Source: an uncultured delta proteobacterium (GTDB taxonomy: Bacteria; Desulfobacterota; Binatia; UBA9968). Taken from it: a DNA stretch of 64,000 nucleotides. The stretch is from the NCBI GenBank assembly GCA_963847445.1, contig CAWJZV010000034.1, forward strand, positions 64,001 to 128,000, written 5' to 3'. Both the position numbers and the translations under genes were made by a program. Below are positions 8,795 to 50,471 of the stretch, in pieces (within the stretch, counting starts at the first letter, position 1; each line of letters starts with the position of its first letter). Under the pieces are notes generated by a model. That model made no database searches. It saw nothing but the letters and a program-made list of their open reading frames with translations, and was not told where the DNA came from.

Positions 8795-10717
8795 ATGTGC
8801 GGTATCGCCGGTAAAATCAATTTTCAAAACGCTCGTCCCGTCATGCACGCCACTATTGCGCGGATGTGCGCGGTGATGCGGCACCGAGGTCCCGACGACG
8901 AGGGGATCTACCTGGACAGGTATTTCGGCATGGGCATGAGGCGGCTCAGTATTATCGATCTAGCTACCGGCAAACAGCCGATCAGCAACGAGGACGGGTC
9001 GATCTGGACGGTATTGAACGGGGAAATCTACAACTTTTTGGAGCTGCGCGAACTTCTCGAGCAGAAAGGCCACAAGTTTTATACCCATACCGACACCGAG
9101 GTGATCGTTCATTCCTACGAGGAATACGGAGAAAAGTTCGCCGAACATCTGACTGGCATGTTTGCCGTCGCGGTCTGGGACAAGCGCCAAGAGAAGTTGA
9201 TCCTGGCGCGGGACCGGCTAGGGATCAAGCCGCTTTACTACTCGGAAGGCCCGAACGGATTGCTTTTCGGATCGGAAACCAAGGCTATTTTACAGGACGG
9301 CATAGAGAGAGACGTCGACTTGCAGGCGCTCCACGATTATCTCTCGTTCAACTATGTGCCGGGGCCGCGTTCGATCTTCAAGCATGTCCGCTCGCTTCCC
9401 CCGGGACATGTCTTGACGTGCTCGGGAAAGAGTGTGGCGATTGCGCCTTATTGGCAGATTCAATACCCGCTGGGCTCGGCTAACGGCAACCGCCGCTCCG
9501 CAGAAAGCTACTGCGAAGAACTGTACGAACTCCTGTGCAGCACCGTCAAACAGCACCTGATCAGCGACGTTCCGCTCGGGGTTTTTTTGAGCGGGGGGGT
9601 GGATTCCAGCGCTTTGGTTGCGCTGATGAGCAAAGTTTCCTCGCAAACGATCCGGACTTTTTCCATTGGTTTTGAAGAGAAGTCTTACAATGAGCTCGAC
9701 TATGCCAGGATTGTGGCGCGAGAGTTTGGCACGGAGCACCACGAGCTGGTTGTCAGTCCCAACATCGTGGATCTGTTACCCGAGCTGGTGCGTTACTTCG
9801 ATGAGCCTTTTGCGGACAGCTCGGCGATCCCGGTTTATTGTGTCGCAAAGCTCGCCAGGCAACACGTCAAAGTCGCTCTGAGCGGCGAGGGAGGCGACGA
9901 GGTGTTCGCTGGGTATCACACCTACGCCGCATATAAAATTGCCGAACTGTACAAACGCCTGCCGCGCAAGCTTGCAGCCGAAGTTATTCCGGCGATTGTC
10001 AGGCGACTGCCGGTTTCTCACAAAAAGGTCAGTTTCGATTATAAGGCGAAACGATTTATCGAGGGAGCGCTATTGCCGCCGGCGCAGGGCCACTATTCGT
10101 GGAAGGTGATTTTTACCGAGGAGGCCAAAGCCGCGCTTTACGCAAGTAACCGGGAGAAGTTTGAAGATCCCCTCCGACTCTATCATAGCGTCTATGACGA
10201 CTGCGCCACCGCCGACGTACTGACCAGGCTTCAGCACATCGACCTCAAGGTCTACCTGCCGGACGATATTCTCGTCAAGGCCGATCGAATGAGCATGGCT
10301 AATTCTTTAGAGGCTCGGGTGCCGTTCCTCGATCACCGTGTCGTCGAATTCGCCGCCGCGCTGCCGGCGCGGCTCAAACTTCGAGGCTTAACTAAAAAAT
10401 ATATTCTCAAGCGGACGATGTCGCGTGACCTTCCGGCCAAGGTCCTGAACGGAAAAAAGCGCGGCTTTAACGTTCCCATGCCAAGCTGGCTGCGCCACGA
10501 GTTGCGCGACGTGGTGCACGAAGTTCTCGGTCCACGGCGGCTTAAAGAGGCCGGGTTTTTCCGCTCTGAGGCTGTTGCCGCGATGATCCGCGATCATGAG
10601 AGCATGCGCATCGATTATAGCCGCAATATTTGGTGCCTCTTGGTCTTCATGCTCTGGCATGACGAGTACGTACGGCATCCACAGGTTGCCGCGTGCCAAG
10701 AACAAATGGCTCTATAG
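8795..10717 (+). CDS. asnB: Asparagine synthase (glutamine-hydrolysing)-family amidotransferase
   Basis: MCGIAG N-terminal Cys, RHRGPD, LSGGVDSS, SGEGGDE, EARVPFLD, KKRGF. Confidence 0.95.
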   Translation: MCGIAGKINFQNARPVMHATIARMCAVMRHRGPDDEGIYLDRYFGMGMRRLSIIDLATGKQPISNEDGSIWTVLNGEIYNFLELRELLEQKGHKFYTHTDTEVIVHSYEEYGEKFAEHLTGMFAVAVWDKRQEKLILARDRLGIKPLYYSEGPNGLLFGSETKAILQDGIERDVDLQALHDYLSFNYVPGPRSIFKHVRSLPPGHVLTCSGKSVAIAPYWQIQYPLGSANGNRRSAESYCEELYELLCSTVKQHLISDVPLGVFLSGGVDSSALVALMSKVSSQTIRTFSIGFEEKSYNELDYARIVAREFGTEHHELVVSPNIVDLLPELVRYFDEPFADSSAIPVYCVAKLARQHVKVALSGEGGDEVFAGYHTYAAYKIAELYKRLPRKLAAEVIPAIVRRLPVSHKKVSFDYKAKRFIEGALLPPAQGHYSWKVIFTEEAKAALYASNREKFEDPLRLYHSVYDDCATADVLTRLQHIDLKVYLPDDILVKADRMSMANSLEARVPFLDHRVVEFAAALPARLKLRGLTKKYILKRTMSRDLPAKVLNGKKRGFNVPMPSWLRHELRDVVHEVLGPRRLKEAGFFRSEAVAAMIRDHESMRIDYSRNIWCLLVFMLWHDEYVRHPQVAACQEQMAL

Positions 10718-11865: not shown

Positions 11866-13079
11866 ATGAAAATCACCCACGTGATCAGCGGACTCACCGC
11901 GGGCGGCGCGCAGACGATGCTCTATAAGCTGCTCTCGCAGATGGACCAGGCGGCCTTTGCGTCTGAGGTCATTTCGCTAGCGGATGTCGGTCCCCTTGAT
12001 AAAAAGATTCGCGCCTTGGGGGTGCCGGTTCGGGTACTGGGAATGCGCGCGGGAGTACCGAATCCACTGCGGAGTGCACAGACTCGCCCGCTGGCTGCGA
12101 CGCGATCCACCCGATATGGTTCAAACCTGGATGTACCACGCCGACCTCATTGGCGGCCTCGCGGCCAAGTTAGCCGGCGGCATCCCGGTGGCGTGGAACA
12201 TTCGTAACAGTAATCTCGACGCCAAAGGCAAAAAGCGAAGTACCTTTTTGGACCGTTAGGACCTGTGCCAGGTTGTCCGGCTGGCTACCAACCCGGATTG
12301 TCTGTTGCGCGGAACTCGCTCGCCGAGTGCATACCGAATTCGGCTACATAGGGGAGAAAATTGTCGTCATTCCCAACGGTTTTGACCTGACGGACTTCAG
12401 ACCGGACCCTGCGGCGCGGCTGTCCGTGCGCCAGGAGCTGGGCATCCCGCAGGAGGCATTAATCATTGGACTCGTGGGTCGCTTTCACCCACAAAAGGAT
12501 CACCGAAACTTCATTGATGCCGCTGCCCGGCTCCACAGCGAATATCCGAAGATCCACTTCTTACTCTGCGGCGACGATGTGACGCCTGAAAACACGGAGC
12601 TCGGCCAATGGATTGCAGCGCGCGGCATCGGCGAGCGCTGTCATCTTTTAGGGCCACGAGATGATATTCCGAGAATCACCGCCGCGCTCGACATCGCGTG
12701 CTCTTCTTCTTACACGGAAGGGTTTTCCAATGTCATCGGCGAAGCAATGGCCTGTGGTGTGCCTTGTGCCGTGACGGATGTCGGGGATTCGGCGTTGATC
12801 GTGGGCGACACGGGCAGGGTTGTACCACCCAGAAATCCGCGAGCTTTGGCCGATGCGTGGTGCGAATTAATCAAGATGTGTCCGGAAAAAAGATCTCTAC
12901 TAGGCGCAGCAGCACGCCGCCGCATTGGAGAGCGGTTCAGCTTACAGGCAATTGCTCAGCGCTATGAGGAATTATACGAAGCGATTGCGGCCGATGCGCC
13001 CAAGGTCATTAGCCACAACCTGTCACCGAATAAAGCCGGGCGGAACGGGTGCATCGATGAAAGCAATAATGGCCGCTAA
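11866..13079 (+). CDS. Glycosyltransferase family 4 (two frameshifts, ~12070 and ~12250)
   Basis: [38 protein letters not shown] spread over three frames. Confidence 0.88.
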
Positions 13080-15576: not shown

Positions 15577-15808
15577 ATTCTTAAATGTTGCTCCGAGCAG
15601 CGAGGAGAACGCACAGCCACTGCCAAGCGCGCGATTCGTTGGGATAGTTTTGCTCTCCTTTGCCCGTTCTACGAGGCTTGCTCCTCGTCGACGCGCTCTC
15701 GTGTGTTTTCCTCGGCACTGAATCAGCAGGCTTCGGCCCGCTGTGCAGTTCTGTCTTTCGAGTATTTCCACTGACTTCACCATTTCTATTTCTTATAGGG
15801 GCGATCGT

Positions 15809-17749
15809 ATGAAACAGCGCAGTTTTTCAACGGCTGACACGGTGGTTAGCGAGGGAGTTTATCCAAGCGGCGTCGGATCTCGTCATGGTAAAATCTATGA
15901 GTCTGAATGGCTCATTTGGGCAGTCCAAGCGTGTATCGGCGTTCTGGGGCTAATTGTTTTCAGCCCGCTTCTGCTTCTGATTGCTTTTACAATCAAGCTT
16001 ACTGATGGCGGGGCTATATTTTACCGCGGCGAACGGGTCGGCCAGGGAAAGCGTATCTTCAAGATCTACAAATTCCGGACGCTCGTCGAGGGTGCGGAAA
16101 AAAAGATCGGCGCCCGGCTATTGCGCACCGAAGACCAGGGCATCTATTACACCAGAATCGGGAGATTTCTAAAGCGAAGCAAGCTTGATGAATTACCCCA
16201 GCTCCTGAACGTTATTCGAGGTGAGATGCGGCTTACCGGTCCTCGACCGGTGCGTCCAATTTTCCTCGATCAGTTCGAGCGCAGCATCGCAAATTACCCT
16301 GATCGTTTCTTGGTGCCCCCGGGTATCACAGGGATTGCCCAACTTCGCGGCGGGTACTACACTTCACCACGGAACAAACTTCGTTACGATCTCATCTACA
16401 TCAAGCGGCGGTCCCTGCTTCTCGATTTTGCAGTCGTCTTTTTCACATTCGCTAAAATACTCAATCGATGGTTCAACAGAGGGTTTTTCGTTCTTTTCCT
16501 ATTTCTCTTTGTGTCCTTTCTTCCGGCGGGCCTGCAACCTTCTTTATACGTAACGTTCTTCGGCACCAGGGTCAGTCTCCTTTACCTATTCATTATCGTT
16601 GTGGCGGCCGGGCTTTTCTTTAAGAAGGGGCCGACTCAGGTTTGCCTGCATCGTGGCCCGCTGAACTTTCCGCTGGTTTTGTTTTTCGCCCTCAGCGCCG
16701 TCTCGGCGCTTTTCGCCGAGGATTTGCATCAGGCCCTTTTGCGGGCCGGTTACTATATCGTCACAGGGTTCATGGTTGCCTTTCTGATTGTGAACAGCCT
16801 CGCCACCAAGGGGTTTATTATTTTGACGGCCCGGGTCATCGCGCTGACCTCGGTGGTGATGTCGGTGTTTGGGCTTTTCCAGATCTTTCTCTTCAATTAT
16901 ACCGTCGCCATGGCCGCGCCTTTTTCCGGCGAACAACTGGCCGGTTATATCCGGGCCTCGTCCTTTCTTGGCAATCCGGTGGTTCTGGCGGTATACCTCG
17001 TTTTGGGACTGCCTCTCTTGCTGTCGGAGGTGACCCGCGCTTCGCGGCAGAGGGAGCGGGACTTCTGGCTCGTCTGCGCCACCCTTTCTTTTGTCGGCAT
17101 CTTTTTCACTCAGACACGGATCGGACTCTTAGCTCTCCTCGTGACCGGAACCGCCTTTCTATCGCGACGCCGGAGCCACGCGATTTTCTTTGTCACGATC
17201 TGTTTAGTCTGGTTGCTGTCTCTGATCGCGCTTGGCGGCGCTCGCTTCTCAGCCGCTGGGATACGGGGCGAGGTGACCGCTTGGGTGGCAAAACAATTGT
17301 ACATTCTCCGGGAGATCCCGGTTAAGACCTGGGTCATCGGCGGCGGAGTGGTCACACCCTACCCGCTCGTCACGGAACCCATAGCGGAGACCGCTCAGTC
17401 CCCTGAAGAAGAGGAGGCCCGCGAGATTCCGAACATGCATGTCACATTAGCTCTCGAGCATGGAATAGTCGGGTGGTGTGTTATCGTCTGGCTCATCCTG
17501 ACTGCTGTGCGGACTATGACTCAGGCTCATCGAAGTACAAGAGACCACGAGCTCAAGTCTATTTTATGGGCGATCGTATCGTCTCTGGTCGGTTTTCTGG
17601 TTTCCATGAATGCCATGAACGTTTTTCACAATCTCCCGCTGCAGATCTTTTTCTGGAGTTTGATCGGTATTGGGCTCGGCACCGTGGTGCATCTTAATGG
17701 ATACCGGCGCTCCAATCTGATCTGGCGGTTCGGCGATGCCGGTGATTGA
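15809..17749 (+). CDS. Priming phosphoglycosyltransferase (Bac_transf) fused to O-antigen ligase/polymerase-like (Wzy_C) membrane domain
   Basis: IYKFRTL, SKLDELPQLLNVIRGEMRLTGPRP, PPGITGIAQ; then multiple TM helices with RASSFLGNP, TQTRIG, NMHVTLALEHGIVG. Confidence 0.85.
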   Translation: MKQRSFSTADTVVSEGVYPSGVGSRHGKIYESEWLIWAVQACIGVLGLIVFSPLLLLIAFTIKLTDGGAIFYRGERVGQGKRIFKIYKFRTLVEGAEKKIGARLLRTEDQGIYYTRIGRFLKRSKLDELPQLLNVIRGEMRLTGPRPVRPIFLDQFERSIANYPDRFLVPPGITGIAQLRGGYYTSPRNKLRYDLIYIKRRSLLLDFAVVFFTFAKILNRWFNRGFFVLFLFLFVSFLPAGLQPSLYVTFFGTRVSLLYLFIIVVAAGLFFKKGPTQVCLHRGPLNFPLVLFFALSAVSALFAEDLHQALLRAGYYIVTGFMVAFLIVNSLATKGFIILTARVIALTSVVMSVFGLFQIFLFNYTVAMAAPFSGEQLAGYIRASSFLGNPVVLAVYLVLGLPLLLSEVTRASRQRERDFWLVCATLSFVGIFFTQTRIGLLALLVTGTAFLSRRRSHAIFFVTICLVWLLSLIALGGARFSAAGIRGEVTAWVAKQLYILREIPVKTWVIGGGVVTPYPLVTEPIAETAQSPEEEEAREIPNMHVTLALEHGIVGWCVIVWLILTAVRTMTQAHRSTRDHELKSILWAIVSSLVGFLVSMNAMNVFHNLPLQIFFWSLIGIGLGTVVHLNGYRRSNLIWRFGDAGD

Positions 17750-17958: not shown

Positions 17959-18937
17959 ATGAATATCCTTAAACGCATACTACCACAGCGCCGGTCCGAG
18001 ACCGCGGTCCAGGCCGTTCAATCTGCTCCTCAATCCACAAGCGCCGTCCAGAAGGATCAGGTCGAGGCAGCACGACCCTCACCGCAGGCGTCAAACAATT
18101 ACATCATGGTGGTTCTGGATAGCTGTCGCTACGATAGCTTCATGGCCGCGGCGCCTTCCACCTTGAGCCGGCTCGGTGCAATCGAGCGACGTTGGAGCTA
18201 TGCGTCGTGGACCGCTCCATCGCATTTTAATCTGCTGATGGGGTTGCTCCCACACTCGAGCCCGCCTCATGTCTATGCCTCGGAGTATTACAAACACGAC
18301 TTCCTCAAGTATCGAGAACGGTTGGGCGCCGAGCAGGTCGAGTTTAAGAGCCTGGTGCCGCACCTCTTTTTGCCCACGTTTCTTAAACAAAAGTTGGGCT
18401 ATCAAACGCACGCGCTGGTGTCGTTGCCGGTGCTCAATCCCGCGACCCTTATTAACAAGGACTTTGATAGTTTTACGCTAATGCCCAAGCACAACGACAT
18501 GGCGGCGATGATCGATCGCATGACGTTCTCCCCCGACCGGCCGTCTTTTTATATTTTGAACGTGGGCGAGACTCACTACCCTTATGCGTTGCCGGATGAG
18601 CCCGAGGACTGCTGGCCGAAAATTCATGGAGTGCACGGCGTTTTTAAACACTTGGACGACCTGGTAGTGGGCGGAAAGCTGATCGAGGACGAAGGAGCAC
18701 AGGACAAGTTCTTCGACCAGGAGAAACTGGATGACCTGCGTGCCCGGCAGATTGGCACAGTGCGCTATCTGGACGGGATCTTTGCCCGCCTTTTTGACAT
18801 CGGTGCCGCCCAACACCTATATCACGGTGACCGCCGATCATGGCGAGTTGTTCGGCGAGCAAGGGTATTTTGGCCACGGTCCCATTTATCATGAAAAGGC
18901 CTACGAGGTGCCGTTCGTCGAGGGCAAGATCCGCTAG
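17959..18937 (+). CDS. Alkaline phosphatase/sulfatase-superfamily protein (frameshift at ~18800)
   Basis: VVLDSCRYD, SWTAPSH, ETHYPY, TADHGELFGE..GHG; AAGGAG SD. Confidence 0.8.
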
Positions 18938-25808: not shown

Positions 25809-26702
25809 ATGAGATCGCCTGATTTTTTTATCGTCGGAGCGCCGAAATGCGGCACCACCGCGATGAATTTCTATCTCAAGCAACATCCGGACATCTTCAT
25901 GTCTGAGAAAGAAATTCATTTTTTCGGCGAGGATCTGCGCTTCGCCGTCCCCAGAGTGACGAGGCAGCAATATCTCTCCGCTTTCTCCGCCGCGACTGAG
26001 GTCAAAAGAGCTGGTGAGGCCGCGGTGTGGTACCTGTACTCGCGGCAGGCTGCGCACGAAATAAAGGAATTCTCTCCTTCGGCGCGGATCATTATTATGC
26101 TTCGCAACCCCGTCGACGTCATGTATTCGCTCTACCGGCAACGTCTGTATAACGGCAACGAAGATATCGAAGACTTCGAAGCGGCGTTGGATGCCGAGGA
26201 GAGTCGAGAGTTGGGGAAACGGATGCCGAGACGGCCGTCGAATCTCATGGGGTGCTTTTACCGGGCGAGCGTGAAATTCACGAGTCAAGTCCGGCGCTAT
26301 TTCGATCGGTTCGATCGGCAGAATGTGCATGTCATTATTTTTGACGATTTCCAGAAAGATGCAGCTCTGGTCTACAGCCAATGCTGTGATTTCCTCGATG
26401 TAGATAATCGTTTTCGGCCAAGCTTCCCCGTCATAAATGCTAGGCAACGTGCCCGGAGCGAGTTTATACGGGATCTATTGCACGATCCTCCCCGATCCTT
26501 TCACTGGTTTGCCAAGGCGTTGATGCTTCGGCGGAACCGCCAGGGAGGATACAAAGGCTGGCTTAAGCGTTTAAACACCACTCACGCGAACATACCGCCG
26601 ATGCAACCAGAATTGAGGCGGGCACTGAAGGAAGAGTTCCGGCCAGAAGTGGAGCAGTTAAGCGAGTTGCTCGGCCGCGATCTAACTACCTGGTGCAACT
26701 GA
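25809..26702 (+). CDS. Sulfotransferase
   Basis: PDFFIVGAPKCGTTAM, KEIHFF, MLRNPVDVMYS. Confidence 0.93.
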   Translation: MRSPDFFIVGAPKCGTTAMNFYLKQHPDIFMSEKEIHFFGEDLRFAVPRVTRQQYLSAFSAATEVKRAGEAAVWYLYSRQAAHEIKEFSPSARIIIMLRNPVDVMYSLYRQRLYNGNEDIEDFEAALDAEESRELGKRMPRRPSNLMGCFYRASVKFTSQVRRYFDRFDRQNVHVIIFDDFQKDAALVYSQCCDFLDVDNRFRPSFPVINARQRARSEFIRDLLHDPPRSFHWFAKALMLRRNRQGGYKGWLKRLNTTHANIPPMQPELRRALKEEFRPEVEQLSELLGRDLTTWCN

Positions 26703-28372
26703 TGAGAACTAATACTGATTCGGCGCCGCTCCCTCTCGTTGGAGGAATCTCGCAGACCGTTGCCCGCACATGGTTTGCCTGGGCCGGCCGATTTTTGTTG
26801 TGGTCGTTCGCTTTTGGTATCTCCTATACTCAATCGCCCCTTTATACCTCGAATCAAAATACCAAATTCATTCATGGCCTGGCAGACGCCGGGTTGGGTT
26901 TCCTGACCGAAGATTGGTTGGCCAAGACGACAGACGTACTTCCAGTTTTTAGCTATTTGGTTTATCTGACGTACAAGTACCTGCATGAATCCATGTTCTA
27001 CTTCTACAATATTCTAATCTTTGGTGTTTATCTCTACAGTGTGTCGGGCATCGTTTCGACCGTCTACAATATCAATAGCGACCGACTCAGACACCTTACA
27101 TTCCTGACCGTCATTACCGCGATACATTCCTATGCCTTCGACTCGCTCTCATTGAGGCTCTTGGGGTTCGAACTGGGACAATTCCTCCACTACGGAGTTG
27201 CCGAACAACACGCGATCGGACGGATCTTTCAGCCCAGTGTCTTTGGCGTCCTTATTGTTTTATCGATTTATGCTTTTCTCCGCCGAAAGACGGTTGCCGC
27301 CGTTTTTCTTCTAGCCTTCTCGGCGACCATTCATCCGGCTTATTTCCTGACTGCGGCGGTTTACACCTGCGCCTATATGTGGATCGTATATAGGGAGAAG
27401 AACAGCATAAAAAAATCTTTGGCTGTCGGATTCTTCGTTCTCATTTTGACTTTGCCCTACTTGGCGTATTTCTATGTTCAGTTTAGTCCGACGTCGCCAG
27501 AAATCTGGAGTAGGGCGCAAGATATTCTGGTCAATTTCCGGAGCCCGCATCACATGAATGCGGACGTCTGGTTGAACGCGTCTGCCTATGGGAAAGTCCT
27601 CCTCGTGACCACGGCTTTGTACCTGGTCAGAAAAACGCAGCTTCTGCCGTTCATGCTCTTGCCGTTTTTGGTCTTTTTACTTTCCATCGTCGCACAGTTG
27701 CTGACCGGCAATAACACGTTAGCGGCCGCTACTCCGTGGCGTATTTCCGTCTTCTTAGTTCCGCTCTCGGTCGGGATCATCGTTGCTCATTTGGTGTCTT
27801 ATGTATTTGAAAAATTTCGTGAGCCAATTTCTAAGAATCACAAAACCATCACCGTCTTAAGCTTCGCAGCGGTTTTGATGCTCGTACTCTATGGGGTGAT
27901 GACCCAGGTGAAACGCCACGTCAAGTACTACCGTGGCGACAGCATTCCGATGATGAACTTCGTGAGGGAAACGAAATCTTCGGGCGAAACTTATCTTGTA
28001 CCTGTCGAGTTGGAAGATTTTCGGTTGTACACGGGAGCTCCCACATTTATAACGTTCAAGTCGGGGGCGTTTAAAGATGCGGAATATTTAGAGTGGTATA
28101 AACGGCTTGTCGCCGCAAGCGAGTTCTATCTAGCTAAGGACGCCGGGGCCTGCAAGATGCTGAAAACGTTCGAGGACGATTACAAAATCACGCATGTCGT
28201 CGTACCGGGCCATGCGCCGGACAGGCCTTGCGAAAATGCCTACGAGCTATATAAGGATGACCATTATCGCGTCTACAGAATCGACACAAATCGCTCCGTT
28301 GCTCGATTATTAAAGAGGCCCCGACCTGACATTTTTGAGCTTCATGGGTGTAATGAATTTCATTCACCGTAA
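26702..28372 (+). CDS. Polytopic membrane protein (DUF6798-like, possible GT-C fold)
   Basis: TGATG coupling to the sulfotransferase; QSPLYTSNQNT, FQPSVFGV, RSPHH, FRLYTG motifs; ~12 hydrophobic segments. Confidence 0.7.
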   Translation: MRTNTDSAPLPLVGGISQTVARTWFAWAGRFLLWSFAFGISYTQSPLYTSNQNTKFIHGLADAGLGFLTEDWLAKTTDVLPVFSYLVYLTYKYLHESMFYFYNILIFGVYLYSVSGIVSTVYNINSDRLRHLTFLTVITAIHSYAFDSLSLRLLGFELGQFLHYGVAEQHAIGRIFQPSVFGVLIVLSIYAFLRRKTVAAVFLLAFSATIHPAYFLTAAVYTCAYMWIVYREKNSIKKSLAVGFFVLILTLPYLAYFYVQFSPTSPEIWSRAQDILVNFRSPHHMNADVWLNASAYGKVLLVTTALYLVRKTQLLPFMLLPFLVFLLSIVAQLLTGNNTLAAATPWRISVFLVPLSVGIIVAHLVSYVFEKFREPISKNHKTITVLSFAAVLMLVLYGVMTQVKRHVKYYRGDSIPMMNFVRETKSSGETYLVPVELEDFRLYTGAPTFITFKSGAFKDAEYLEWYKRLVAASEFYLAKDAGACKMLKTFEDDYKITHVVVPGHAPDRPCENAYELYKDDHYRVYRIDTNRSVARLLKRPRPDIFELHGCNEFHSP

Positions 28373-28592: not shown

Positions 28593-28608
28593 TGGCATTG
28601 CCCTTGCA
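28593..28608 (+). promoter_or_regulatory. Candidate sigma-54 (-24/-12) promoter
   Basis: TGGCATTGCCCTTGCA with exact GG-N10-GC spacing. Confidence 0.45.
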
Positions 28609-28624
28609 CTGGGCGTTGGGAACT

Positions 28625-30064
28625 ATGAAATTCCCAATATTCATTGTCATGTTTGCTGTGGCCAATCTATTTTTGAGTTTACCTGCTTTGCGAAAGTACA
28701 AACCCCCGACCAAACCCGTAGTGATCGACGACGGGGCCTACACTAGCTCTTTTGTAAAGCTACATGCGAAGTGGACTAGCCCTAGTCCCGAATCGGGAAT
28801 CGTCAAATTTAGATATCAAATCCGCGAGGGGTCAACTTCAGGCCCTATCATAGTTGGCTGGCAGTCGGTTGGTCTGGCAACCGAAATCACCCATCTTGGG
28901 TTAAGTCTTTTCAACGGGAAGACCTATTATATTGGGGTGAAGGCGATAAATAGCGAAGGCAAGACGTCCGACGTGGGTTACTCGGACGGGATCACAGTAC
29001 AAAATAGTTCCGCACCGCCACCACCACCGCCACCACCACCGCCGCCGCCACCACCACCGCCGCCGGCGAGCGGGGTACTGGAAGGATTTGGCTCTCAAAC
29101 ATCGGGTGGTGCGGGGAAGCCTATTGTCTTTGTTAGCAATCTGAACGATTCCGGTCCGGGCTCTCTCCGGGCTGCGCTGTCTGGTGGAGATAGGACGATT
29201 CAATTCTTGGTGGGTGGTTTGATCCCGCTTGCCAGTACTCTGCGCGTTAATGGAGCAAATATCACGCTTGACGGTTGCAGTGCCCCTGCACCAGGAATTA
29301 CTCTTGTTGGTCGTCCGGTAGATATTCGCGGCAACTACGGTGCGCACGATGTTATCGTTCAGTGTATTCGTAGCCGAGATTCTATTGATGATGGTTTCAC
29401 TATTAGCGAAGGAGCTTTTAACATTGTCCTGGATCGGGTAAGCGTTGCTAATGCTGCTGACGGAGCTATCGACATTGGTAGTTGGAACGGAAAGCATACG
29501 CACGATATAACTGTCCAGCGTTCGTTAATGACTCAGCCACGTAAGATCATGTTGGTGAAATATTTTGATGTTAAACGGGTTAGTTTACATCACAATTTAT
29601 TTGCTGATTCGACTGATCGGAGCCCGCGCATTGCCTATAACCAGAGCGGCGGGTTGCCAGCGAATGAAATTACCGTCGACTTGCGCAACAACGTGATCGC
29701 CAATTGGAGGGGAGGAATCGGCACGGATGCATCCTGCGGCGCTAAAGCCAATATAGTAGGAAATTACTTTTCCAATTCTGGTGCATCGGTGACCGATCAG
29801 AAGCAGGGAATCGTCGTGTCCAGTGCATCCGAAACTTGCCTCCAAGGTTTTGCATACGTGGAGGGCAACGAGAGTGCAGATGTCCCGGATATAGACAACA
29901 CGCCTTATATTCGCGTGCCCAAAGAAACCATCCCGTTTGCCGCACCGCCGATCACAGAGCAGAACGCATGTGGCGCTGCGCAAATCGTTCTAGCCACGGC
30001 TGGCCATCCTATTCGCGACGACATTGATCAAGCTGCGGTCGGCAGAGTGAGAATCAATTGCTAA
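28625..30064 (+). CDS. Secreted FN3/Ig-like domain + 17-Pro linker + PL1-like lyase domain
   Basis: W...ESGI..Y...YYIGVKAIN FN3-like; poly-Pro; NLNDSGPGSLRAAL, DGAIDI, HHNLF, RSPRI. Confidence 0.85.
   Translation: MKFPIFIVMFAVANLFLSLPALRKYKPPTKPVVIDDGAYTSSFVKLHAKWTSPSPESGIVKFRYQIREGSTSGPIIVGWQSVGLATEITHLGLSLFNGKTYYIGVKAINSEGKTSDVGYSDGITVQNSSAPPPPPPPPPPPPPPPPPASGVLEGFGSQTSGGAGKPIVFVSNLNDSGPGSLRAALSGGDRTIQFLVGGLIPLASTLRVNGANITLDGCSAPAPGITLVGRPVDIRGNYGAHDVIVQCIRSRDSIDDGFTISEGAFNIVLDRVSVANAADGAIDIGSWNGKHTHDITVQRSLMTQPRKIMLVKYFDVKRVSLHHNLFADSTDRSPRIAYNQSGGLPANEITVDLRNNVIANWRGGIGTDASCGAKANIVGNYFSNSGASVTDQKQGIVVSSASETCLQGFAYVEGNESADVPDIDNTPYIRVPKETIPFAAPPITEQNACGAAQIVLATAGHPIRDDIDQAAVGRVRINC
29015..29065 (+). 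repeat. CCR triplet run encoding 17 consecutive prolines
   Basis: Mixed CCG/CCA codons, 51 nt. Confidence 0.95.
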
Positions 30065-30689: not shown

Positions 30690-32354
30690 ATGGCGATTCT
30701 AGAAACGGTGAATAAAGGCTTTAAGAGAATCGGCGCAGCGAGGCTCGGTCTTGCTGTGACAATTCTCTTCGCGCTCTATCCAGCTATTCCATGCCTGGCG
30801 CAACCGTATCAAGGATTTGGAGCGAATACGCCAGGTGGGTCGGGGCAGCCAATTTACCATGTGACAAACCTCAACGATTCCGGACCTGGAAGCCTGCGTG
30901 ACGCCGTATCTCAGGGCGATCGGACCGTCGTGTTCGATGTGGCCGGGGAGATTGTGCTTTCAAGTGAGATCTACGTGAAAGGCGCTTTCATCACCATTGA
31001 TGGCTTTAGCGCACCCTCGCCCATAACCCTGGTTAACGATGGCCTGAGAATCGTCGGGAATATCGGCGCGCATGACATCATCGTCCGGGGCATACGGGTG
31101 CGGAATGCTATAGGGGATAGCATCACGATCCGTGACGGGGCGTATAACGTTCTCATCGACCATATCTCCTCCCAGGGGGCGACCGATGGAGCCATCGACA
31201 TCACCAGGGGCGCGCATGACGTGACTGTCCAGTGGAGTATCCTCGCTGAGAACGGGCCGGAGCATAACTTCTTGGCATTGGTCGAGTTTCAAGCCCTGCG
31301 TGTCACCTTTCATCACAACCTGTTTGTGAAAGGGCAGAGTCGAAACCCGCAGTCCGGCTGGGATACTACTTTAGCCACAACCGCGCCCGAGATTGTCACT
31401 GATATCCGCAACAACCTGATTTGGGATTTCTCTGCTTACGGGACCGTGGCTACTAAGAAGACGAAAGCTAATGTAGTGAACAACTTTTACTATTCCTCGC
31501 TTAATCCGAAAGCTAAAAGAGCACTCTATGTGACTGATGGTAGCCAGGTCTATGCCGCAGGCAACTACAGTCATAACGGTGCGAACGTTGATGGGGAGGG
31601 AAACCAGCAGGCTCCTTTCCCTGCAGTTGCGGTGGACATCACCGACGCCTGCACCGCTGCTCACCAGGTACTTGCCGAGGCGGGAGTAAGTCCGCGGGAT
31701 GTTGTCGATCAGCAGAATCTGTCGGCCGTGTCGCTACCGTCATGTAGCGCGCCTAACCCGACTATCGCGGTTAGCCCGAATGGGCTTGATTTTTCTGCCA
31801 CTATCGGGGCACCAAACCCATCCCCGAAGCCACTGACGATCACCGACTCGAGTAATGGCGTGTCTTGGAATGCGACTACCAGTGCGGCGTGGCTCGCAGT
31901 TTCCCCTATGGGCGGGACAACTCCATCGAACGTGACTGTCACCGCAAACTCGTTTGGTTTGCCGGTAGGCTCCCATCTAACGACGATTAGCATTATCGCT
32001 CCGGGCGCAGAAAATTCTCCGTTGTCGATCCCGGTGACTCTGACAGTGTCCCCCACTGTTACGACGTTACCCCAGATCACTACTCCGATACCGGGTTCAG
32101 CACTTCCGGGTTCAAGCGTCACCTTCGGCTGGGCCACCAACGGGGCGAATGTAGACAAGTGGCAACTGTATGTCGGGTCCAGTCAAGGCGCGAAGGACCT
32201 TCACGACAGTGGCAAGTTTGGCGGAAGTTCCACCACCTCTAAAACTGTATCCGGGTTGCCGGTCGATGGACGCACAATCTGGGTGCAACTTCGTTTCAAG
32301 ATCGACGCGAATTGGCAGTTCGCCGATTTTCAGTACAGCGCCGCTCCGAAGTAA
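30690..32354 (+). CDS. Secreted PL1-like lyase + BACON-like domain + C-terminal Ig-like domain
   Basis: Signal peptide, NLNDSGPGSLRDA, NVLIDHIS, DGAIDI, SRNPQ; then SWNATTSAAWLAVSP..GTTPS BACON motif. Confidence 0.87.
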   Translation: MAILETVNKGFKRIGAARLGLAVTILFALYPAIPCLAQPYQGFGANTPGGSGQPIYHVTNLNDSGPGSLRDAVSQGDRTVVFDVAGEIVLSSEIYVKGAFITIDGFSAPSPITLVNDGLRIVGNIGAHDIIVRGIRVRNAIGDSITIRDGAYNVLIDHISSQGATDGAIDITRGAHDVTVQWSILAENGPEHNFLALVEFQALRVTFHHNLFVKGQSRNPQSGWDTTLATTAPEIVTDIRNNLIWDFSAYGTVATKKTKANVVNNFYYSSLNPKAKRALYVTDGSQVYAAGNYSHNGANVDGEGNQQAPFPAVAVDITDACTAAHQVLAEAGVSPRDVVDQQNLSAVSLPSCSAPNPTIAVSPNGLDFSATIGAPNPSPKPLTITDSSNGVSWNATTSAAWLAVSPMGGTTPSNVTVTANSFGLPVGSHLTTISIIAPGAENSPLSIPVTLTVSPTVTTLPQITTPIPGSALPGSSVTFGWATNGANVDKWQLYVGSSQGAKDLHDSGKFGGSSTTSKTVSGLPVDGRTIWVQLRFKIDANWQFADFQYSAAPK

Positions 32355-33447: not shown

Positions 33448-35057
33448 ATGAAAGAATATACGAGCCTGCGCGTCTCTCCCTATGCGGCGAACGCGTTGCG
33501 CATGCCCTTGGCGCCCTAGGATTTGCATCGGTCGGAAAATTCTTGTTCTGGTGGCGAGGATTCGGTGTTGCCTACACGCAAGCACCGCTTTACACGTCAA
33601 ATCAAAACACCAAATTTCTTATTGGTTTGGCAGACGGTGGTTTGGGATTTCTGAACGAGGACTGGCTGGCCAATACCTTGGACCCTTTTCCGCTCTTTAG
33701 CTTCTTAGTCCATGCGACTTACCGCTACCTTCACGCCAACGCGTTCTACTTCTACAATATTGTTATCTTCGGAGTTTATCTTTATAGCGTGTCGGGGATC
33801 GTGGCGAAGATCTGCAACATCAAGGAACCACGACCTAAATACCTTACGTTCCTGGTCGCTACTATTGCACTTCATTCTTACGCTTTAGACTCTCTCTCTC
33901 TGAGAATCTTTGGTTTTGAATTGGCACAGCTCCACTATGGATTGGCCGAATATCATATCATCGGGCGAATATTTCAGCCTAGCGTATTTGGCGTTTTCAT
34001 ACTCTTGTCAATCTACGCGTTTCTTAATAAACGGTTCTTTTCGGCTGCTTTCCTGTTGGTTTTCGCGGCAATAGTTCATCCCACTTACCTTTTAATTTCT
34101 GCGGTACTGACAGTCTCATATATGTTAGTTGTTTACGCGAGAGGAAAAAACGCAAAAAAGTCGCTCTCTCTAGGGCTTTTCAATCTCACGTTGATACTGC
34201 CGGTCTTGGGCTATCTCTTCATCTACTTTAGCCCAACGTCGCCTGAGTTATGGAGCAAATCGAAAGCGGTGTTGATCAATATCAGGAGCCCGCATCACTT
34301 CAACCCGGAAGTTTGGCTTGGCGGGCTGTGTGTATGAAACTAGGCATTACGGCAGTGGCTATTTATCTGGTCAGAAACACGCGGCTTTTCCCGATCATGT
34401 TATTACCTTTTGCGATTGCCGTGATTCTGAGCATTACACAGGTAATATGGGGAAATAACGGCCTTGCGGCTCTTACGCCCTGGCGTATGTTCATTGTCTT
34501 AGTGCCGGTGGCGCTCGCGATTATTGTCGGACATCTCGTTTCGCGATTTTTCGAGAAAGTTCTTCAATCCGACCGGAGAACGATATGCCGTAGCGACTCT
34601 GGTAAATTTTACGGTACTGCTGGTGCTGGTTCTCTATGGCGCGAATACGCAGATGAAACGATTTGCGAATTACTACGGCGGCGAAGCGATGCCGATGATG
34701 AACTATGTAAGGGAAGCGAAATCTTTCGGTGACAACTTTCTCATACCCGTCGAATTGGAAGACTTTCGACTTTATACAGGCGCGCCTATCTTGGTAAATT
34801 TCAAGTCAGGGCCGTACAAGGATACTGAATACATGGAGTGGTATCAGCGCTTCATCGGAGCTAGCGATTTTTACAATGCCCGGGACGAGGCCGCTTGCGA
34901 CATTCTTCAACGGTTGCTCGATAGGTACAAGCTAACGCACGTTGTCGTCAAAGGCGCCCATCCCGGCGCACAGTGCGGGAATTTGGCGAAATTATATAAA
35001 GATGATCACTATAGCGTTTATAGAATACAGAAAGAGAAGTCATCAATAGGTAGCTAG
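33448..35057 (+). CDS. DUF6798-like membrane protein, paralog of 26702-28372 (frameshifted)
   Basis: YTQAPLYTSNQNTKF, FQPSVFGV, RSPHH, ELEDFRLYTGAP across three ORFs. Confidence 0.8.
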
Positions 35058-35533
35058 CGGCTACTTCCGGGGAAAATGACCACAGCCCGCCGGCTAAAAG
35101 ACTGGCCACTACAATTATTAAGATCTCCACGGGCTTGGTCAAACCCAGTCAAGTTAAGGGTTTCAAGGGATGTCGGGCGGCTGCCGACCGACGGTCGCAC
35201 TATAGGGCTAGAGCTACGGTTCTAAGGCGCTCGGATTTCAGTCAAAGCGCGAGAAAGCCCGTGTAGACCACCGCAATGTCTCGCGGCGGGAACCGCGCAG
35301 CTCGCTACTTGAACTCATAAAAAGGCTCGTAGCCAATAAAAGCGAGCAGTGAGAATCGTGAGAAGCCGCGAGTCGCGCGCGGTACCCCGTGTTAGCGCTT
35401 ATTAATCGAGCGACCCCTTTCGTATCGCTGGTTTGGTCCGGCAGGCCGGTACGAATGACAGGCGTGACATGCCTCATCGCGTCAGCTCGCGGTCCTAATC
35501 CATCTCCTTCCGTTGTTCGAACACAGCGCAGAC

Positions 35534-37214
35534 ATGAAAAGAGATCCTTCTCGATTGGCTGATCGGATTTTCGATATTGCTGTCGTCGGCGGCGGAATCT
35601 ATGGGATTAGCGTGGCGAGGGATGCCGCTTTACGAGGATTGACGGTAGGCTTAGTCGAGCAAGGCGACTTCGGCAACGCCGCTTCCTCGAATCATCACAA
35701 GATCATCCATGGCGGTTTTCGGTATCTGCAACACGCGGACTTTTCAAGGATGCGCGAATCAATTAGGGAGCGCAACGTTCTTATGCGAATCGCTCCGCAT
35801 CTCGTCCACCCATTGCCGTGTGTCATACCGACTTACGGTCACCGTCTAAAAGAAAAACTCATGCTCGCGGTGGCGCTGAAGATAAATGATTTGATCAGCT
35901 TTGATCGGAATCGAAAGCTGCGAGAGGAGCCAAAAAATCCCCGCTGGCCGCATTTTATCAACGGCGCAGTGTCTACAGCTTTGCCCCAATATCGATCAAC
36001 GCGGGTTGAACGGAGGCGCACTTTTTTTCGACGCCCAGGTCGACAACCCGGACCGTCTCAACTTATCGGTTTTGTTTTCCGCCGCAGAAGCCGGGGCGGA
36101 CTTCGCAAATTACGTGGAGATGACTGAATTCCTGCGAGACGGTCCTGCGGTTTCAGGCGTACGCGTTAGGGATACGCTTTCGGGAGCGGAGTTTGCGATT
36201 CGCGCTCGGGTTGTTGTCAATTGCACCGGTCCTAGGCCGGATCAGATTCTCCACTTGCTCGGACGGCCGCCGATCGAAATACCTACTAAGCTGTTGAAAG
36301 CGATAGTGCTGGTAACGCGGCCTGTAGTGGGCAACACAGCCGTTGGCATACGCAGTAGAGCGCCGTATACCGATCGAGACGCCGTTGTTCAAAAGGGGTA
36401 CAGGTTCTTTTTTATCACACCCTGGCGACATACGTCGCTGGTCGGCACGTTTGAAACCCCGTACAAAGCGGATCGCGACGGCCGGGATGTAAGTGAAAAC
36501 GAGATTACGGATTTCCTCCGACAAATCAACGATGCTTTCTCGGGTGCCCGCCTTCAACGGGAGGATGTGGTTGGGGTTTTGAGCGGCCTTTTGCCCGCTG
36601 CGGACGCGAGCGGGCCAAATGGTCACGTGCAACGCCAGAATCACTGGATCATACGAGATCACGGAGCCGAAGACGGTATATCAGGGCTGCTATCTGTTGT
36701 CGGAGTGAAATATACGACGGCGAGAGGCATTGCCGAGAGAACCGTCAACCTGGTTTTAACGAAACTTGGCCGCAAGTTTGTACGATCTCGAACTGCGGAA
36801 ACTCCAGTAGCCGGGGCCGTCATCAATGGCTGGGACGAATTTGCCGATCAAGCGGCGAAAGAACGCACTCGGCAGATCAGCACCGAGACGCTAAGGCATT
36901 TGTTGCAGTGCTACGGATCTGAATACCGCACAATTCTGCGCTATTGCGACGAAGATTCAAGCTGGAGCCGGTCAATCAGCGGTGACGCGCCGACGATACG
37001 GGCTGAAGTGCTCCATGGCATACGGTCCGAGATGGCCCGCAAGCTGAGCGACGTCATTTTCCGACGCACGGAATTAGGGACTGCGGGACATCCAGGAGAC
37101 GCTTGCCTTCACGCCTGCGCGGAAATCATGCGCGCGGAATTGGACTGGAACAAAGCGACGATGTTTCGAGAGTTGGACGACGTTCAGCAGGCGTTTTCGT
37201 ACGAACGACAATAA
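35534..37214 (+). CDS. glpD: FAD-dependent glycerol-3-phosphate dehydrogenase/oxidase-like protein (frameshift at ~35935)
   Basis: DIAVVGGGIYG, KIIHGGFRYL, GVKYTTAR, DVIFRRTELG. Confidence 0.82.
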
Positions 37215-37218
37215 GCCC

Positions 37219-38445
37219 GTGCAAGCTGATAATCTGAAAATTCTGATGATCGCACCGACGCCGTTTTTTGCGGACCGTGGATGCCACATCCGTATTCTAG
37301 GCGAAGCCAAGGCGCTGATTAACTTAGGCCACGAATTGATCCTATGTACGTATTTTCTCGGCCGGGATATCGAAGGTGTCCCGGTTGTGCGTACCTTGTC
37401 CGTTCCGTGGTACAACAAGCTGTCTGCCGGACCATCGTGGCACAAGTTCTACATCGATCTGTTACTGTTGGGGAAAGTCGTCTCGGTGTGCCGTACATTT
37501 CGGCCCGATGTCATTCACGCGCATCTACATGAGGGAGTCGTTATCGGCAAGATCGCGAGTCGGCTTTTTGGGATTCCGCTGGTCGCGGATCTTCAGGGCA
37601 GTCTTACCGATGAACTCCTGGCTCACAGGTTTATCCCGGAGGTTCGCATCTTGGTAAAACTCGTCCGCTGGATTGAGAAAAAGATCAACCAGATGCCAAT
37701 ACACCTGATCGTCAGCTCCAAGCAGACTGCCCAGAGTTGCGTCGACACTTATGGTATCTCTGGAAACCGGGTCAGTTCGGTGACCGACGGCGTCGATCTC
37801 GATATTTTTTCACCGCGCGAAAAAGATTTGGTTCTGCAGGCGGCTTTAGGCATTCACAAAGGCGGTGGGAACGATGAATGATAGGGTGGTCATTTTCGTT
37901 GGCGTGCTCTCTGAGTATCAGGGAATTGACTTGCTGCTGGAAGCCATTCCTCTGGTCGTTCGAGAAGTGCCTGAGGTGAAGTTTTTAATTGTCGGATATC
38001 CCGGGGAACAAGTTTATCGGGAAGGGCGCGCGCGCTGGGTGTGGAGAGATGGACCCACTTCACCGGCAGGATTCCTTACGAAGAGGTGCCGCGTTATCTC
38101 TCGTTGGCCGACATTGCGGTTTCTCCGAAAATTTCCGCCACGCGAGGCAAATTTAAAACTGTTTACGTACATGGCTATGGGACTTCCGACCGTGGTTTTT
38201 GACAACCCTATCAACCGTGAAATTCTCGACGATCTCGGAGTGTATGCCAAAAATGGGGATGTAGAATCGCTGGCAGCCGCATTGATCCAGTGTTCTTCAA
38301 GACAGAGCATGGGCTCAACAGCTTGGCAAGCTAAGTCATCAAAAGGCCGCCGCACTTCATTCGTGGCTGCAAGTGGGCAAGCGATTGGGAGACATCTACA
38401 ATTCGATAGCCCCTTACACGGGCTCGGGTTCAAAGGAGCAAGCCG
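37219..38445 (+). CDS. Glycosyltransferase family 4 (frameshifted; end approximate)
   Basis: PTPFFADRGCHIRI, HAHLHEG, DGVD, YQGIDLL, KLFTYMAMGLP. Confidence 0.82.
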
Positions 38446-39477
38446 ATGGCCAACGAAAAGGTGCTGGTTACTGGGGGAGCCGGTTTCGTCGGTTCCCATT
38501 TAGCAAACGAATTAGTTAGGCGCGGCTACCGTGTCACGGTCTTAGATGATCTCAGCGGCGGATTTGCGGAGAATGTCCAGCAGAAAGCCCGGTTGATCCA
38601 AGGTAGCGTATCCGACGAAAATCTAATCAAAGTTATCTTCTCAAGGGAAAAGTTCGATTATGTCTTTCACCTGGCTGCATATGCTGCGGAGGGGCTCAGT
38701 CATTTTATTAAGAAGTTCAACTATGAAAATAATCTTATCGGGAGCATTAATCTCATCAATGCGTCGATCAACCACGAGGTGGAGTGCTTTGTCTTTACTT
38801 CTTCCATCGCGGTTTACGGGAAAAACCAGCTTCCGATGACCGAAGAAATGGTTCCGGTGCCGGAGGACCCATACGGCATTGCCAAACTGGCTGTGGAGCG
38901 CGAGCTGCAGGTGAGCCATGAGATGTTCGGGCTTGATTACATCATCTTCAGGCCGCACAACGTGTACGGCGAGCAGCAGAATATCGGCGATCGTTATCGC
39001 AACGTCGTGGGAATCTTCATGAACCAGATCATGCGGGGCGAGCCGATGACGATTTTCGGCGACGGTGAGCAGACTCGGGCTTTCACATACGTTCGAGATG
39101 TTGTACCGGTGATGGCCGATGCTCCTCTCAATCGCCTGGCCCGCAACCAAATATTTAACCTCGGGGCGGAAACGCCCTACACGGTGAATGAGCTCGCCAA
39201 ACAGGTGGCCAAGGCCATGGGCGTTCCCCCGAAAGTGAAGTATCTGGACGCGCGGAGCGAACTCAAGCACGCCTTTAGCAGCCACAAGCGGGTAGAGGAG
39301 GTTTTCGGTCACAAGCCTAACTTCACGCTGGAAGCCGGCTTGGCGAACATGGCTAGTTGGGCCCGGCAGGTCGGGTCCCGGGAAAGCAAATTTTTTGGCG
39401 AGATCGAGATTGCCAAAAACATGCCGGCCAGCTGGCAACAATCACTATCGCGGCCACGCGCGAAGGTGGGAACATGA
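38446..39477 (+). CDS. NAD-dependent sugar epimerase/dehydratase
   Basis: [14 protein letters not shown] (YxxxK), RPHNVYG. Confidence 0.93.

Positions 39478-48659: not shown

Positions 48660-50471
<1,812 letters not shown>

Follow-up and report, generated by a model that had tools for sequence, protein, structure and literature searches.

The window analysed here is a stretch of 64,000 nucleotides (positions 64,001 to 128,000 of contig CAWJZV010000034.1; G000:C34:64001-128000) from the genome of an uncultured delta proteobacterium of the class Binatia (assembly GCA_963847445.1; 7.19 Mb in 48 contigs, 91.8% complete, 6.9% contamination). We conclude that the gene at 15809-17749 encodes a genuine single polypeptide, in which a PglC/WbaP-type phosphoglycosyl transferase (PGT) is joined to a polytopic membrane domain of the WaaL/Wzy_C superfamily. 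Its frame is open on the + strand through 17749, either from an alternative upstream GTG at 15743 or from the ATG at 15809. The N-termini of homologues match the latter, one of them opening with the identical nine residues (alignment A1), and 15809-17749, encoding 646 aa, was therefore taken as the gene. The motifs quoted in an earlier sequence-only reading are all present, namely LDELPQ (residues 126-131), N134, GEM (138-140) and GPRP (144-147) in the N-terminal half and LGNP (387-390), TQTR (434-437) and NMHVTLALEHGIVG (542-555) in the C-terminal domain (C-domain); the open reading frame (ORF) described there is uninterrupted. Conservation counts given below refer to 130 aligned full-length members of the fused family. 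The main parts of the gene are as follows.

15809-17749, + strand: fused gene, 646 aa plus stop (ATG start; stop codon 17747-17749).
15905-16006, + strand: re-entrant membrane helix, residues 33-66, with S52-P53 (AlphaFold2 helix; mean hydropathy 1.71).
15926-16462, + strand: Bac_transf catalytic domain, residues 40-218, cytoplasmic (Pfam and fold match).
16187-16192, + strand: D127-E128 dyad, both residues kept in 130 of 130 members.
16415-16519, + strand: junction, one long helix (residues 203-237) running from the last PGT helix into the first transmembrane helix (TM1) of the C-domain (AlphaFold2).
16469-17746, + strand: WaaL-fold domain of twelve transmembrane (TM) helices (GT-C1 / Wzy_C superfamily), residues 221-646 (fold and profile).

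Other genes of the window are split by frameshifts, including a family 4 glycosyltransferase (GT4) at 11866-13079, a glycerol-3-phosphate dehydrogenase at 35513-37214 and the 3' end of the gene at 17959-18894, and an indel in an error-prone assembly might likewise have joined two adjacent genes into an artefactual fusion. This explanation is extremely improbable in view of the homologues, the junction and independent assemblies. Among the best 120 of 499 homologues at E ≤ 1e-3 (8000 sequences scored), 113 are full length, with 589-726 aa, at least 90% query coverage and 42-99% identity. The other seven are shorter (399-556 aa); the three inspected begin mid-sequence, two of them without Met, and are therefore fragments. 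The junction is among the best-conserved parts of the fused family: alignment positions 195-239 are free of gaps in 130/130 members, with a single two-column insertion after position 230. Contigs from four of four soil metagenome runs, belonging to four studies and approximately 97-98% identical to the window, cross the junction with substitutions only and no gaps. They cover 15703-17308 (X1), 15784-17288 (X2), 16265-16636 (X4) and 16102-16662 (X8) without an inserted or deleted letter, and hence bridge the region of about 16440-16520 that the sequence-only reading had singled out for verification. The same fused frame is carried by four other genomes (G004, G005, G405 and G183). Neither a stop nor an indel was found at the junction in the independent contigs or the homologues, and the fusion is not an assembly artefact.

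The N-terminal half was assigned with confidence. Pfam PF02397 (Bac_transf) matches residues 40-218 with E 2.2e-51 and 174.4 bits, compared with a cut-off of 27, and the only further Pfam match on the whole protein at E ≤ 1 is a chance match to a DUF, a domain whose function is unknown. Exopolysaccharide (EPS)-type PGT models of NCBIfam match the same stretch, all below their full-length cut-offs because just the C-terminal catalytic part of these models of about 445 aa is present; TIGR03025, for instance, matches the PGT half with E 3.4e-61 over model positions 258-440 of 445. These sub-cut-off matches give no readout of the sugar specificity. When the full-length protein was modelled with AlphaFold2 from an alignment of 33 sequences (mean pLDDT 75.3, pTM 0.68), the PGT half resembled PglC of Campylobacter concisus (8e37; Foldseek E 9.2e-10, TM(target) 0.78, VIA Z 18.4) as well as WbaP of Salmonella enterica in its catalytic domain (8t53; VIA Z 21.4). 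A profile of the fused family alone (A1) searched against the PDB retrieved PglC and WbaP only (7 distinct sequences, E 1e-40 to 1.8e-35). A Ser-Pro break in a single re-entrant membrane helix is a feature of PglC, and P53 of the corresponding helix is present in 127/130 members. The Asp-Glu dyad is catalytic in monotopic PGTs; like D127 and E128, R146 is found in 130/130 members. The PglC/WbaP-type assignment made from sequence alone is thereby firm, and every sign points to a small monotopic PGT core that is predicted to be active.

The C-domain belongs to a branch of the Wzy_C superfamily that is too divergent for the Pfam Wzy_C model. Two NCBIfam models of the O-antigen-ligase superfamily match it far below their cut-offs (TIGR00947 on the fused protein, E 1.3e-12; TIGR03097 on residues 213-608, E 2e-6). 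The fold is that of WaaL: the C-domain model matches the cryo-EM structure 7TPG with Foldseek E 1.7e-7, and 340 of 403 residues (model residues 256-632) align to 7tpg_B with VIA Z 22.9 and an rmsd of 4.9 Å at approximately 15% identity. The next-best fold group, the SEDS polymerases FtsW and RodA, reaches Z 11.6-13.6. A second profile (A2), made from C-domain pieces of the fused family together with standalone relatives, retrieved 7TPG from the PDB at E 1.6e-15 as the sole match at E ≤ 10; with the fused-family profile A1 alone, the PDB search did not find WaaL at E ≤ 1. In an ESM Atlas look-up of the C-domain, 29 of 30 matches were Wzy_C clusters. An exhaustive phmmer search with the C-domain gave 266 representative clusters at E ≤ 1e-3. 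The closest matches are fused proteins of about 600-660 aa or N-terminally cut pieces, and standalone relatives of about 400-490 aa appear from E 9e-18 downward. When distant relatives were scanned with Pfam, Wzy_C was detected in 30/35; it was found in all 18 tested relatives of the P0166-P0204 range, and in 6/10 distant relatives of about 620-650 aa that bear Bac_transf. Precomputed PF04932 matches exist for 12 of the 120 listed homologues, and the C-domain regions of the G405 and G183 fusions yield only sub-cut-off Wzy_C matches. The full 12-TM fold is retained down to 26-28% identity. The "Wzy_C-like" label of the sequence-only reading is therefore upheld for superfamily and fold, by TIGR03097, 7TPG, profile A2 and the Wzy_C relatives, but not by Pfam PF04932; a mismatch with the Wzy_C/WaaL folds, which that reading had named as grounds for rejection, was not observed.

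For a comparison at the level of single residues, the following features of the C-domain are relevant.

17057-17068, + strand: RDFW, residues 417-420, predicted cytoplasmic end of TM7 (AlphaFold2 helices, positive-inside pattern).
17108-17119, + strand: TQTR, residues 434-437, predicted periplasmic face, with R437 in the WaaL Arg-191 column.
17231-17434, + strand: large periplasmic loop between TM9 and TM10, residues 475-542 (AlphaFold2), with R479 at 17243-17245.
17432-17473, + strand: NMHVTLALEHGIVG, residues 542-555, with N542 in the WaaL N314 column (alignment to the A2 hidden Markov model, HMM).
17693-17746, + strand: predicted C-terminal cytoplasmic tail, ending in IWRFGDAGD (AlphaFold2 strand 637-640).

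In WaaL, Arg-191 and Arg-265 bind the phosphates of undecaprenyl diphosphate (Und-PP), and His-313 is the proposed acceptor activator, according to the available excerpts of PMC10920833; the same excerpts describe related polymerase families of the clan with one or two Arg residues and Asp or Glu in the His column. In the HMM alignment to 7TPG, WaaL R191 corresponds to R437 (Arg in 109/130 members), R242 to R479 (111/130) and N314 to N542 (Asn in 123/130). Two WaaL glycines located 10 and 13 residues past N314 correspond to G552, present in 129/130 members, and G555, and the register of the alignment is therefore anchored. Three residues past the H313 column lies H544, which is kept in 115/130 members, and E550 on the same helix is kept in 119/130; Q435 is kept in 118/130. 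The triad R437/R479/H544 is complete in 99/130 members. Within the large loop, residues 475-542 include an acidic stretch modelled with low confidence. These patterns suggest that the C-domain is a constrained and probably ligand-binding member of the WaaL clan. A second set of conserved residues comprises the RDFW motif (R417 128/130, D418 121/130, W420 128/130), of which R417 and W420 are among the most invariant residues of the C-domain, and the tail, in which W-R-F-G is kept in 112-121 of 130 members (W639 116, R640 114, F641 121). A conserved tail (family consensus I-W-R-F-G-D-x-G-D) and RDFW loop, both predicted to be cytoplasmic, are unusual for Wzy_C-type proteins, and hint at an interface with the PGT domain.

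The predicted order of elements along the protein is the re-entrant helix (33-66), the cytoplasmic catalytic domain and the long helix (203-237) leading into TM1. Twelve TM helices are predicted, with both termini inside, positive-inside loops and a cytoplasmic tail. The two conserved sites are predicted to lie on opposite faces of the membrane. This arrangement would be that of WaaL, and no other appears to allow an upstream fusion to a cytoplasmic PGT.

No Bac_transf match other than the fused gene was found in the genome, and the surroundings of the gene make up a full locus for exopolysaccharide export. Upstream on the same contig are genes for an RfaH-like antiterminator, an OPX export protein, an XrtA-type ATPase, a chain-length determinant and a Tyr autokinase. 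These are followed by a separate Wzy_C protein of 482 aa (Pfam E 1.6e-10; TIGR03097 E 2.4e-14, below the cut-off of that model), and then by an XrtA-type deacetylase (above cut-off), GT4s, sulfatases, a MurJ/Wzx-type flippase and CysQ. The window itself contains at least five sulfotransferase ORFs, GT4s, an XrtA-type amidotransferase, methyltransferases, DUF2334 deacetylase-like genes and pectate-lyase-like proteins, as well as a carbamoyltransferase (40477-42255), a bifunctional sulfate adenylyltransferase/APS kinase (48702-50471), a TauE exporter (50896-51687) and a sigma-54 response regulator. Two genes in the vicinity of the fusion were assigned as follows.

8795-10717, + strand: AsnB-like amidotransferase of the type found in XrtA/PEP-CTERM-type EPS loci (TIGR03108, E 1.5e-189).
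17959-18894, + strand: downstream gene, weakly alkaline-phosphatase/sulfatase-like (BLASTP E 2e-7 to the sulfatase-domain gene of G183).

The downstream gene is 94% identical to its G004 orthologue up to residue 281 and then diverges (3' end, 18800-18894). The locus as a whole extends over about 70 kb (G000:C34:~41700-115700; its part within the window is 1-51700), with at least six sulfotransferase ORFs, two or three sulfatases and genes for PAPS synthesis. It is a very large Wzx/Wzy-type sulfated-polysaccharide locus related to the XrtA/PEP-CTERM EPS loci, and probably makes a heavily sulfated, carbamoylated exopolysaccharide. With XrtA/PEP-CTERM EPS loci it shares the export protein, ATPase, chain-length determinant, Tyr kinase, deacetylase, amidotransferase and stp2-type GT4s. 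It differs in that the usual large PGT of those loci (TIGR03013) is replaced by the fusion, and in that a search of the genome, which is 91.8% complete, revealed no exosortase (PF09721, TIGR02602). A PEP-CTERM signal was also not found there, which is weak evidence since the positive controls of the model failed to match as well. To TIGR03097, which is described as exosortase A system-associated, the separate 482-aa protein is a better match than the fusion (E 2.4e-14 versus 2e-6), both far below cut-off. The separate protein has a canonical H-N motif, and its BLASTP comparison with the fused C-domain gave E 0.12. As this value amounts to no detectable similarity, recent paralogy was rejected for the locus's two Wzy_C-type proteins.

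Many window genes are split across frames into two or three ORFs (11866-13079, 35513-37214, 37219-38503, 42286-43841, 33543-35057 and 37-1253). Affected are the GT4 at 11866-13079, which is one intact ORF of 372 aa in G004, the glycerol-3-phosphate dehydrogenase, another glycosyltransferase, a sulfotransferase, an AsnB-like gene and a DUF6798 membrane protein. The splits reflect either indel errors of the assembly or widespread decay, and the fused gene is unaffected.

Within the genus, a full-length fusion was found in 3 of the 25 searched genomes, namely that of the window (G000), G004 (full-length copy, 93% identical) and G005 (84%). Most genomes of the genus have large PGTs of about 470 aa in its place, and the fusion was found in none of the 16 other searched genomes of the order. 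An even sample of the phylum contained it in 3 of 401 genomes (G000, G405 and G183); G405 and G183 belong to two further families of the class, and show 35-36% identity over the C-domain. Homologues with a named source are labelled Candidatus Binatia, Rokubacteria and Pyrinomonadaceae. The homologue P0005 is 83% identical to the window protein, and its cluster includes a member annotated as "sugar transferase [Candidatus Binatia bacterium]". A motif-pattern scan of genome contigs, with patterns built from PGT motifs, returned 80 loci of ordinary PGTs matching residues ~12-245 only.

In five of five genomes carrying the fusion, a canonical Wzy_C gene is located upstream on the same contig, at a distance of 7 to 33 kb. 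Genes for the export protein, chain-length determinant and kinase, and then, immediately after the kinase gene, a Wzy_C (PEP_O_lig_1-like) gene, follow each other in the same order in G000, G183 and G405, and in these three lineages an AsnB-like gene and the fusion lie further on from the Wzy_C block. In G183 and G405, the fusion is directly flanked by the AsnB-like amidotransferase gene (upstream) and a sulfatase-domain gene (downstream). In one type of EPS locus, the fusion is an old and conserved component that replaces the usual large PGT (TIGR03013). The fused frame of G183 (L102 4719-8084) runs approximately 500 codons upstream of the Bac_transf domain. An extra N-terminal domain (1121-aa ORF, 1277-aa open frame) was considered there and rejected, as the region overlaps the AsnB-like ORF and has no Pfam match; the extension is probably a stop-free stretch in high-GC DNA.

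On balance, we lean towards a two-faced enzyme, which primes undecaprenyl phosphate (Und-P) inside the cell and uses an Und-PP-linked glycan outside, as a polymerase or as a ligase. On the cytoplasmic leaflet, the N-terminal PGT would transfer a sugar-1-phosphate from a UDP-sugar to Und-P. As no other Bac_transf gene was found in the genome, the fused PGT should prime the sulfated polysaccharide of the surrounding Wzx/Wzy-type locus. The continuous helix would lead from the PGT into the 12-TM WaaL-fold domain, in which R437, R479, N542, H544 and E550 would face the periplasm. This domain probably binds and transfers the Und-PP-linked glycan, either as a repeat-unit polymerase or as a ligase to some acceptor, and would work alongside the locus's separate canonical Wzy_C protein. 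The fusion could thereby fix a 1:1 ratio and the co-location of the enzymes that load and unload a scarce carrier, and limit dead-end carrier-bound intermediates. We infer the topology, both activities, the choice between polymerase and ligase, and the selective reason for the fusion; the fusion itself, the two folds, their conservation and the locus context are what the analysis shows. The proposal of the sequence-only reading that the first and last steps of the pathway are coupled in one protein is retained as far as a PGT is joined to a WaaL-fold domain, but the wording "last step" is not supported, with a second Wzy_C protein in all five genomes.

Several results weigh against this reading. 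On the whole protein, PF04932 (Wzy_C) gave nothing at E ≤ 1, and Pfam returned no family at E ≤ 0.01 for residues 221-646 (426 aa) alone. The predicted topology derives from the helices of an AlphaFold2 model with a mean pLDDT of 75, simple hydropathy and the distribution of Lys and Arg. Of the three key residues named for WaaL, just the Arg-191 column is matched: the R265 column falls at about residue 493, which is V, L or I in the family, and the H313 column at P541 is variable among the 130 members (P 37, S 20, A 18, N 12, others). As judged from the alignment, the C-domain does not pass as a WaaL-type ligase by its residues. The triad R437/R479/H544 is incomplete in 31/130 members, and Arg is absent at both 437 and 479 in 17/130, in which the fusion and the catalytic residues of the PGT are kept. 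The motifs with the strongest family-specific conservation (RDFW, the Y/H-R-x-P loop and the IWRFGD tail) are all predicted to be cytoplasmic. Finally, a canonical Wzy_C protein is already encoded in all five loci, which leaves no obvious need for a second transferase; either of the two may polymerise or ligate. The locus has a flippase, a chain-length determinant and a kinase; for the role of the Wzy polymerase, the separate Wzy_C protein directly after the kinase gene is as good a candidate as the C-domain.

The same observations can be read in favour of a non-catalytic C-domain, that is, an anchor, oligomerisation module or sensor taking the place of the N-terminal four-helix bundle of large PGTs. 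Such a domain might bind partner proteins or Und-PP-glycan and modulate the PGT from the cytoplasmic side, with the separate Wzy_C protein acting as the polymerase. The loss of the His-313 and Arg-265 columns, the persistence of the fusion and of the PGT residues in the 17 members without both Arg 437 and Arg 479, the predicted cytoplasmic position of the best-conserved family-specific motifs, the canonical HN-motif Wzy_C gene in five of five loci and the use of ordinary large PGTs of about 470 aa by most genomes of the genus would all agree with it. However, the predicted periplasm-facing residues N542, H544, E550, Q435, R437 and R479 are strongly conserved and a mere anchor needs none of them, R437 occupies the Und-PP-binding Arg-191 column, and the 12-TM fold is kept even at 26-28% identity. 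We regard a non-catalytic C-domain as less likely than the two-faced enzyme, but as its main and a serious rival.

O-oligosaccharyltransferases of the PglL/PilO type also belong to the Wzy_C superfamily, and the sequence-only reading had suggested a device that initiates a glycan and transfers it to secreted proteins encoded close by that have Pro/Ser/Thr-rich linkers. Agreement could be seen in the name of the nearest NCBIfam model of the C-domain, "putative O-glycosylation ligase" (TIGR03097, E 2e-6, far below cut-off), and in two ORFs of the window, 28598-30064 with a poly-Pro run and 30690-32354 with a Pro/Thr-rich stretch. These two are, however, the only such ORFs among window ORFs of at least 120 aa, and are located 11-13 kb away, whereas the small secreted ORFs adjacent to the fusion are without Pro/Ser/Thr-rich linkers. 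With OPX, a chain-length determinant, a Tyr kinase and a flippase, the locus is equipped to export a polymer, and the genome (91.8% complete) yielded neither an exosortase nor a PEP-CTERM signal. In addition, no sequence rule sets O-oligosaccharyltransferases apart from polymerases or ligases. We consider protein O-glycosylation by the fusion very unlikely; the suggestion found no support next to a full exopolysaccharide export locus. A further possibility is that both halves form one carrier machine: the WaaL-fold domain would strip the glycan from Und-PP in the periplasm, retain the carrier and return it, through or along the protein itself, to the PGT for renewed priming, with the predicted cytoplasmic motifs RDFW, the Y/H-R-x-P loop and the IWRFGD tail forming the coupling interface. 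Such a private recycling loop within one polypeptide is speculation, as is the carrier recycling suggested in the sequence-only reading, and we would give it a slim chance.

Compared with known systems, the two-faced enzyme that we favour combines familiar parts in a different manner. The class of bifunctional PGTs (Bi-PGTs) was reportedly introduced by O'Toole, Imperiali and Allen in 2021 (PNAS). Like the fusion, Bi-PGTs consist of a monotopic PGT core with a further catalytic-type domain at one end. In the available parts of PMC11257628, PMC10186338 and PMC10942596, bifunctional monotopic PGTs are a recognised class, and the partners named are acetyltransferases and glycosyltransferases. These named partners are soluble cytoplasmic domains, whereas the partner in the fusion is an integral-membrane, periplasm-facing domain. 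PglC of Campylobacter and the core of WbaP/WcaJ share the Pfam family, fold, Ser-Pro re-entrant helix and Asp-Glu dyad with the fusion; PglC is free-standing, while the PGT core of the fusion has a polytopic domain of 426 aa behind it. In large PGTs such as WbaP, a four-helix bundle and a DUF precede the core (as described in the accessible portion of PMC10942596), and both are absent from the fusion. WaaL of C. metallidurans (7TPG; CAZy GT121, clan GT-C1) has in common with the fusion the Arg-191 column and the N...G..G spacing after the large loop. The fused C-domain differs from it by the low identity of ~15%, the loss of the His-313 and Arg-265 columns, the lack of a Pfam Wzy_C match and the attachment to a PGT.

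A precedent is WadA of Brucella, a glycosyltransferase fused to an O-antigen ligase, which its authors present as the first membrane-spanning bifunctional enzyme to have sites on both faces (PMC9938171, available excerpts) and which is classified in CAZy as GT25+GT121 (PMC10920833, available excerpts). As in the fusion, a cytoplasmic N-terminal sugar-transferring domain precedes a 12-TM domain of the O-antigen-ligase type, with sites proposed on both faces. The N-terminal domain of WadA is a core glycosyltransferase acting on lipid A-core, the C-terminal domain has retained the His and Arg conserved in the periplasmic loop, and the context is lipopolysaccharide. The fusion has instead a Bac_transf initiating PGT acting on Und-P, which is not GT25, its His column is not conserved, and its context is EPS. 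A full-text literature search retrieved no PGT fused to a ligase- or polymerase-type domain, although subscription papers and O'Toole 2021 with its supplements may list one.

The balance between loading and unloading the scarce undecaprenyl carrier among competing glycan pathways is an open problem, for which a natural fusion of a loader with a periplasmic user of carrier-linked glycan would be a ready-made test case. Among studied proteins, we found only WadA described with glycan-handling catalytic sites on both membrane faces; the fused family would be the second, and of a different class. With more than 100 full-length members, it offers a good alignment for structural work and clear point mutants for each face. 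Pfam mostly misses this branch of the C-domain, and the genes are therefore annotated just as "sugar transferase", so that half of the protein is overlooked.

Some further observations concern neighbouring ORFs and relatives. The pectate-lyase-like ORF at 28598-30064 contains an unbroken run of at least 17 prolines, which starts near residue 140, and the one at 30690-32354 combines its Pro/Thr-rich stretch with a BACON_2 domain. Two polytopic DUF6798 membrane ORFs are present in the EPS locus (26693-28372 and 33543-35057), one of them frameshifted; these could be further enzymes acting on lipid-linked glycans. The subgroup of the fused family without Arg at both 437 and 479 includes P0103-P0119, P0127, P0131 and others, some of them labelled Rokubacteria or Binatia. 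Other fusion types occur among the relatives of the C-domain, which include P0183, P0192, P0200, P0216, P0250 and P0261. The distant relatives comprise one MurJ flippase plus Wzy_C protein of 981 aa and several proteins combining Wzy_C with TPR repeats, and in P0252 and P0268 (625-638 aa) about 240 residues without a Pfam match are followed by Wzy_C.

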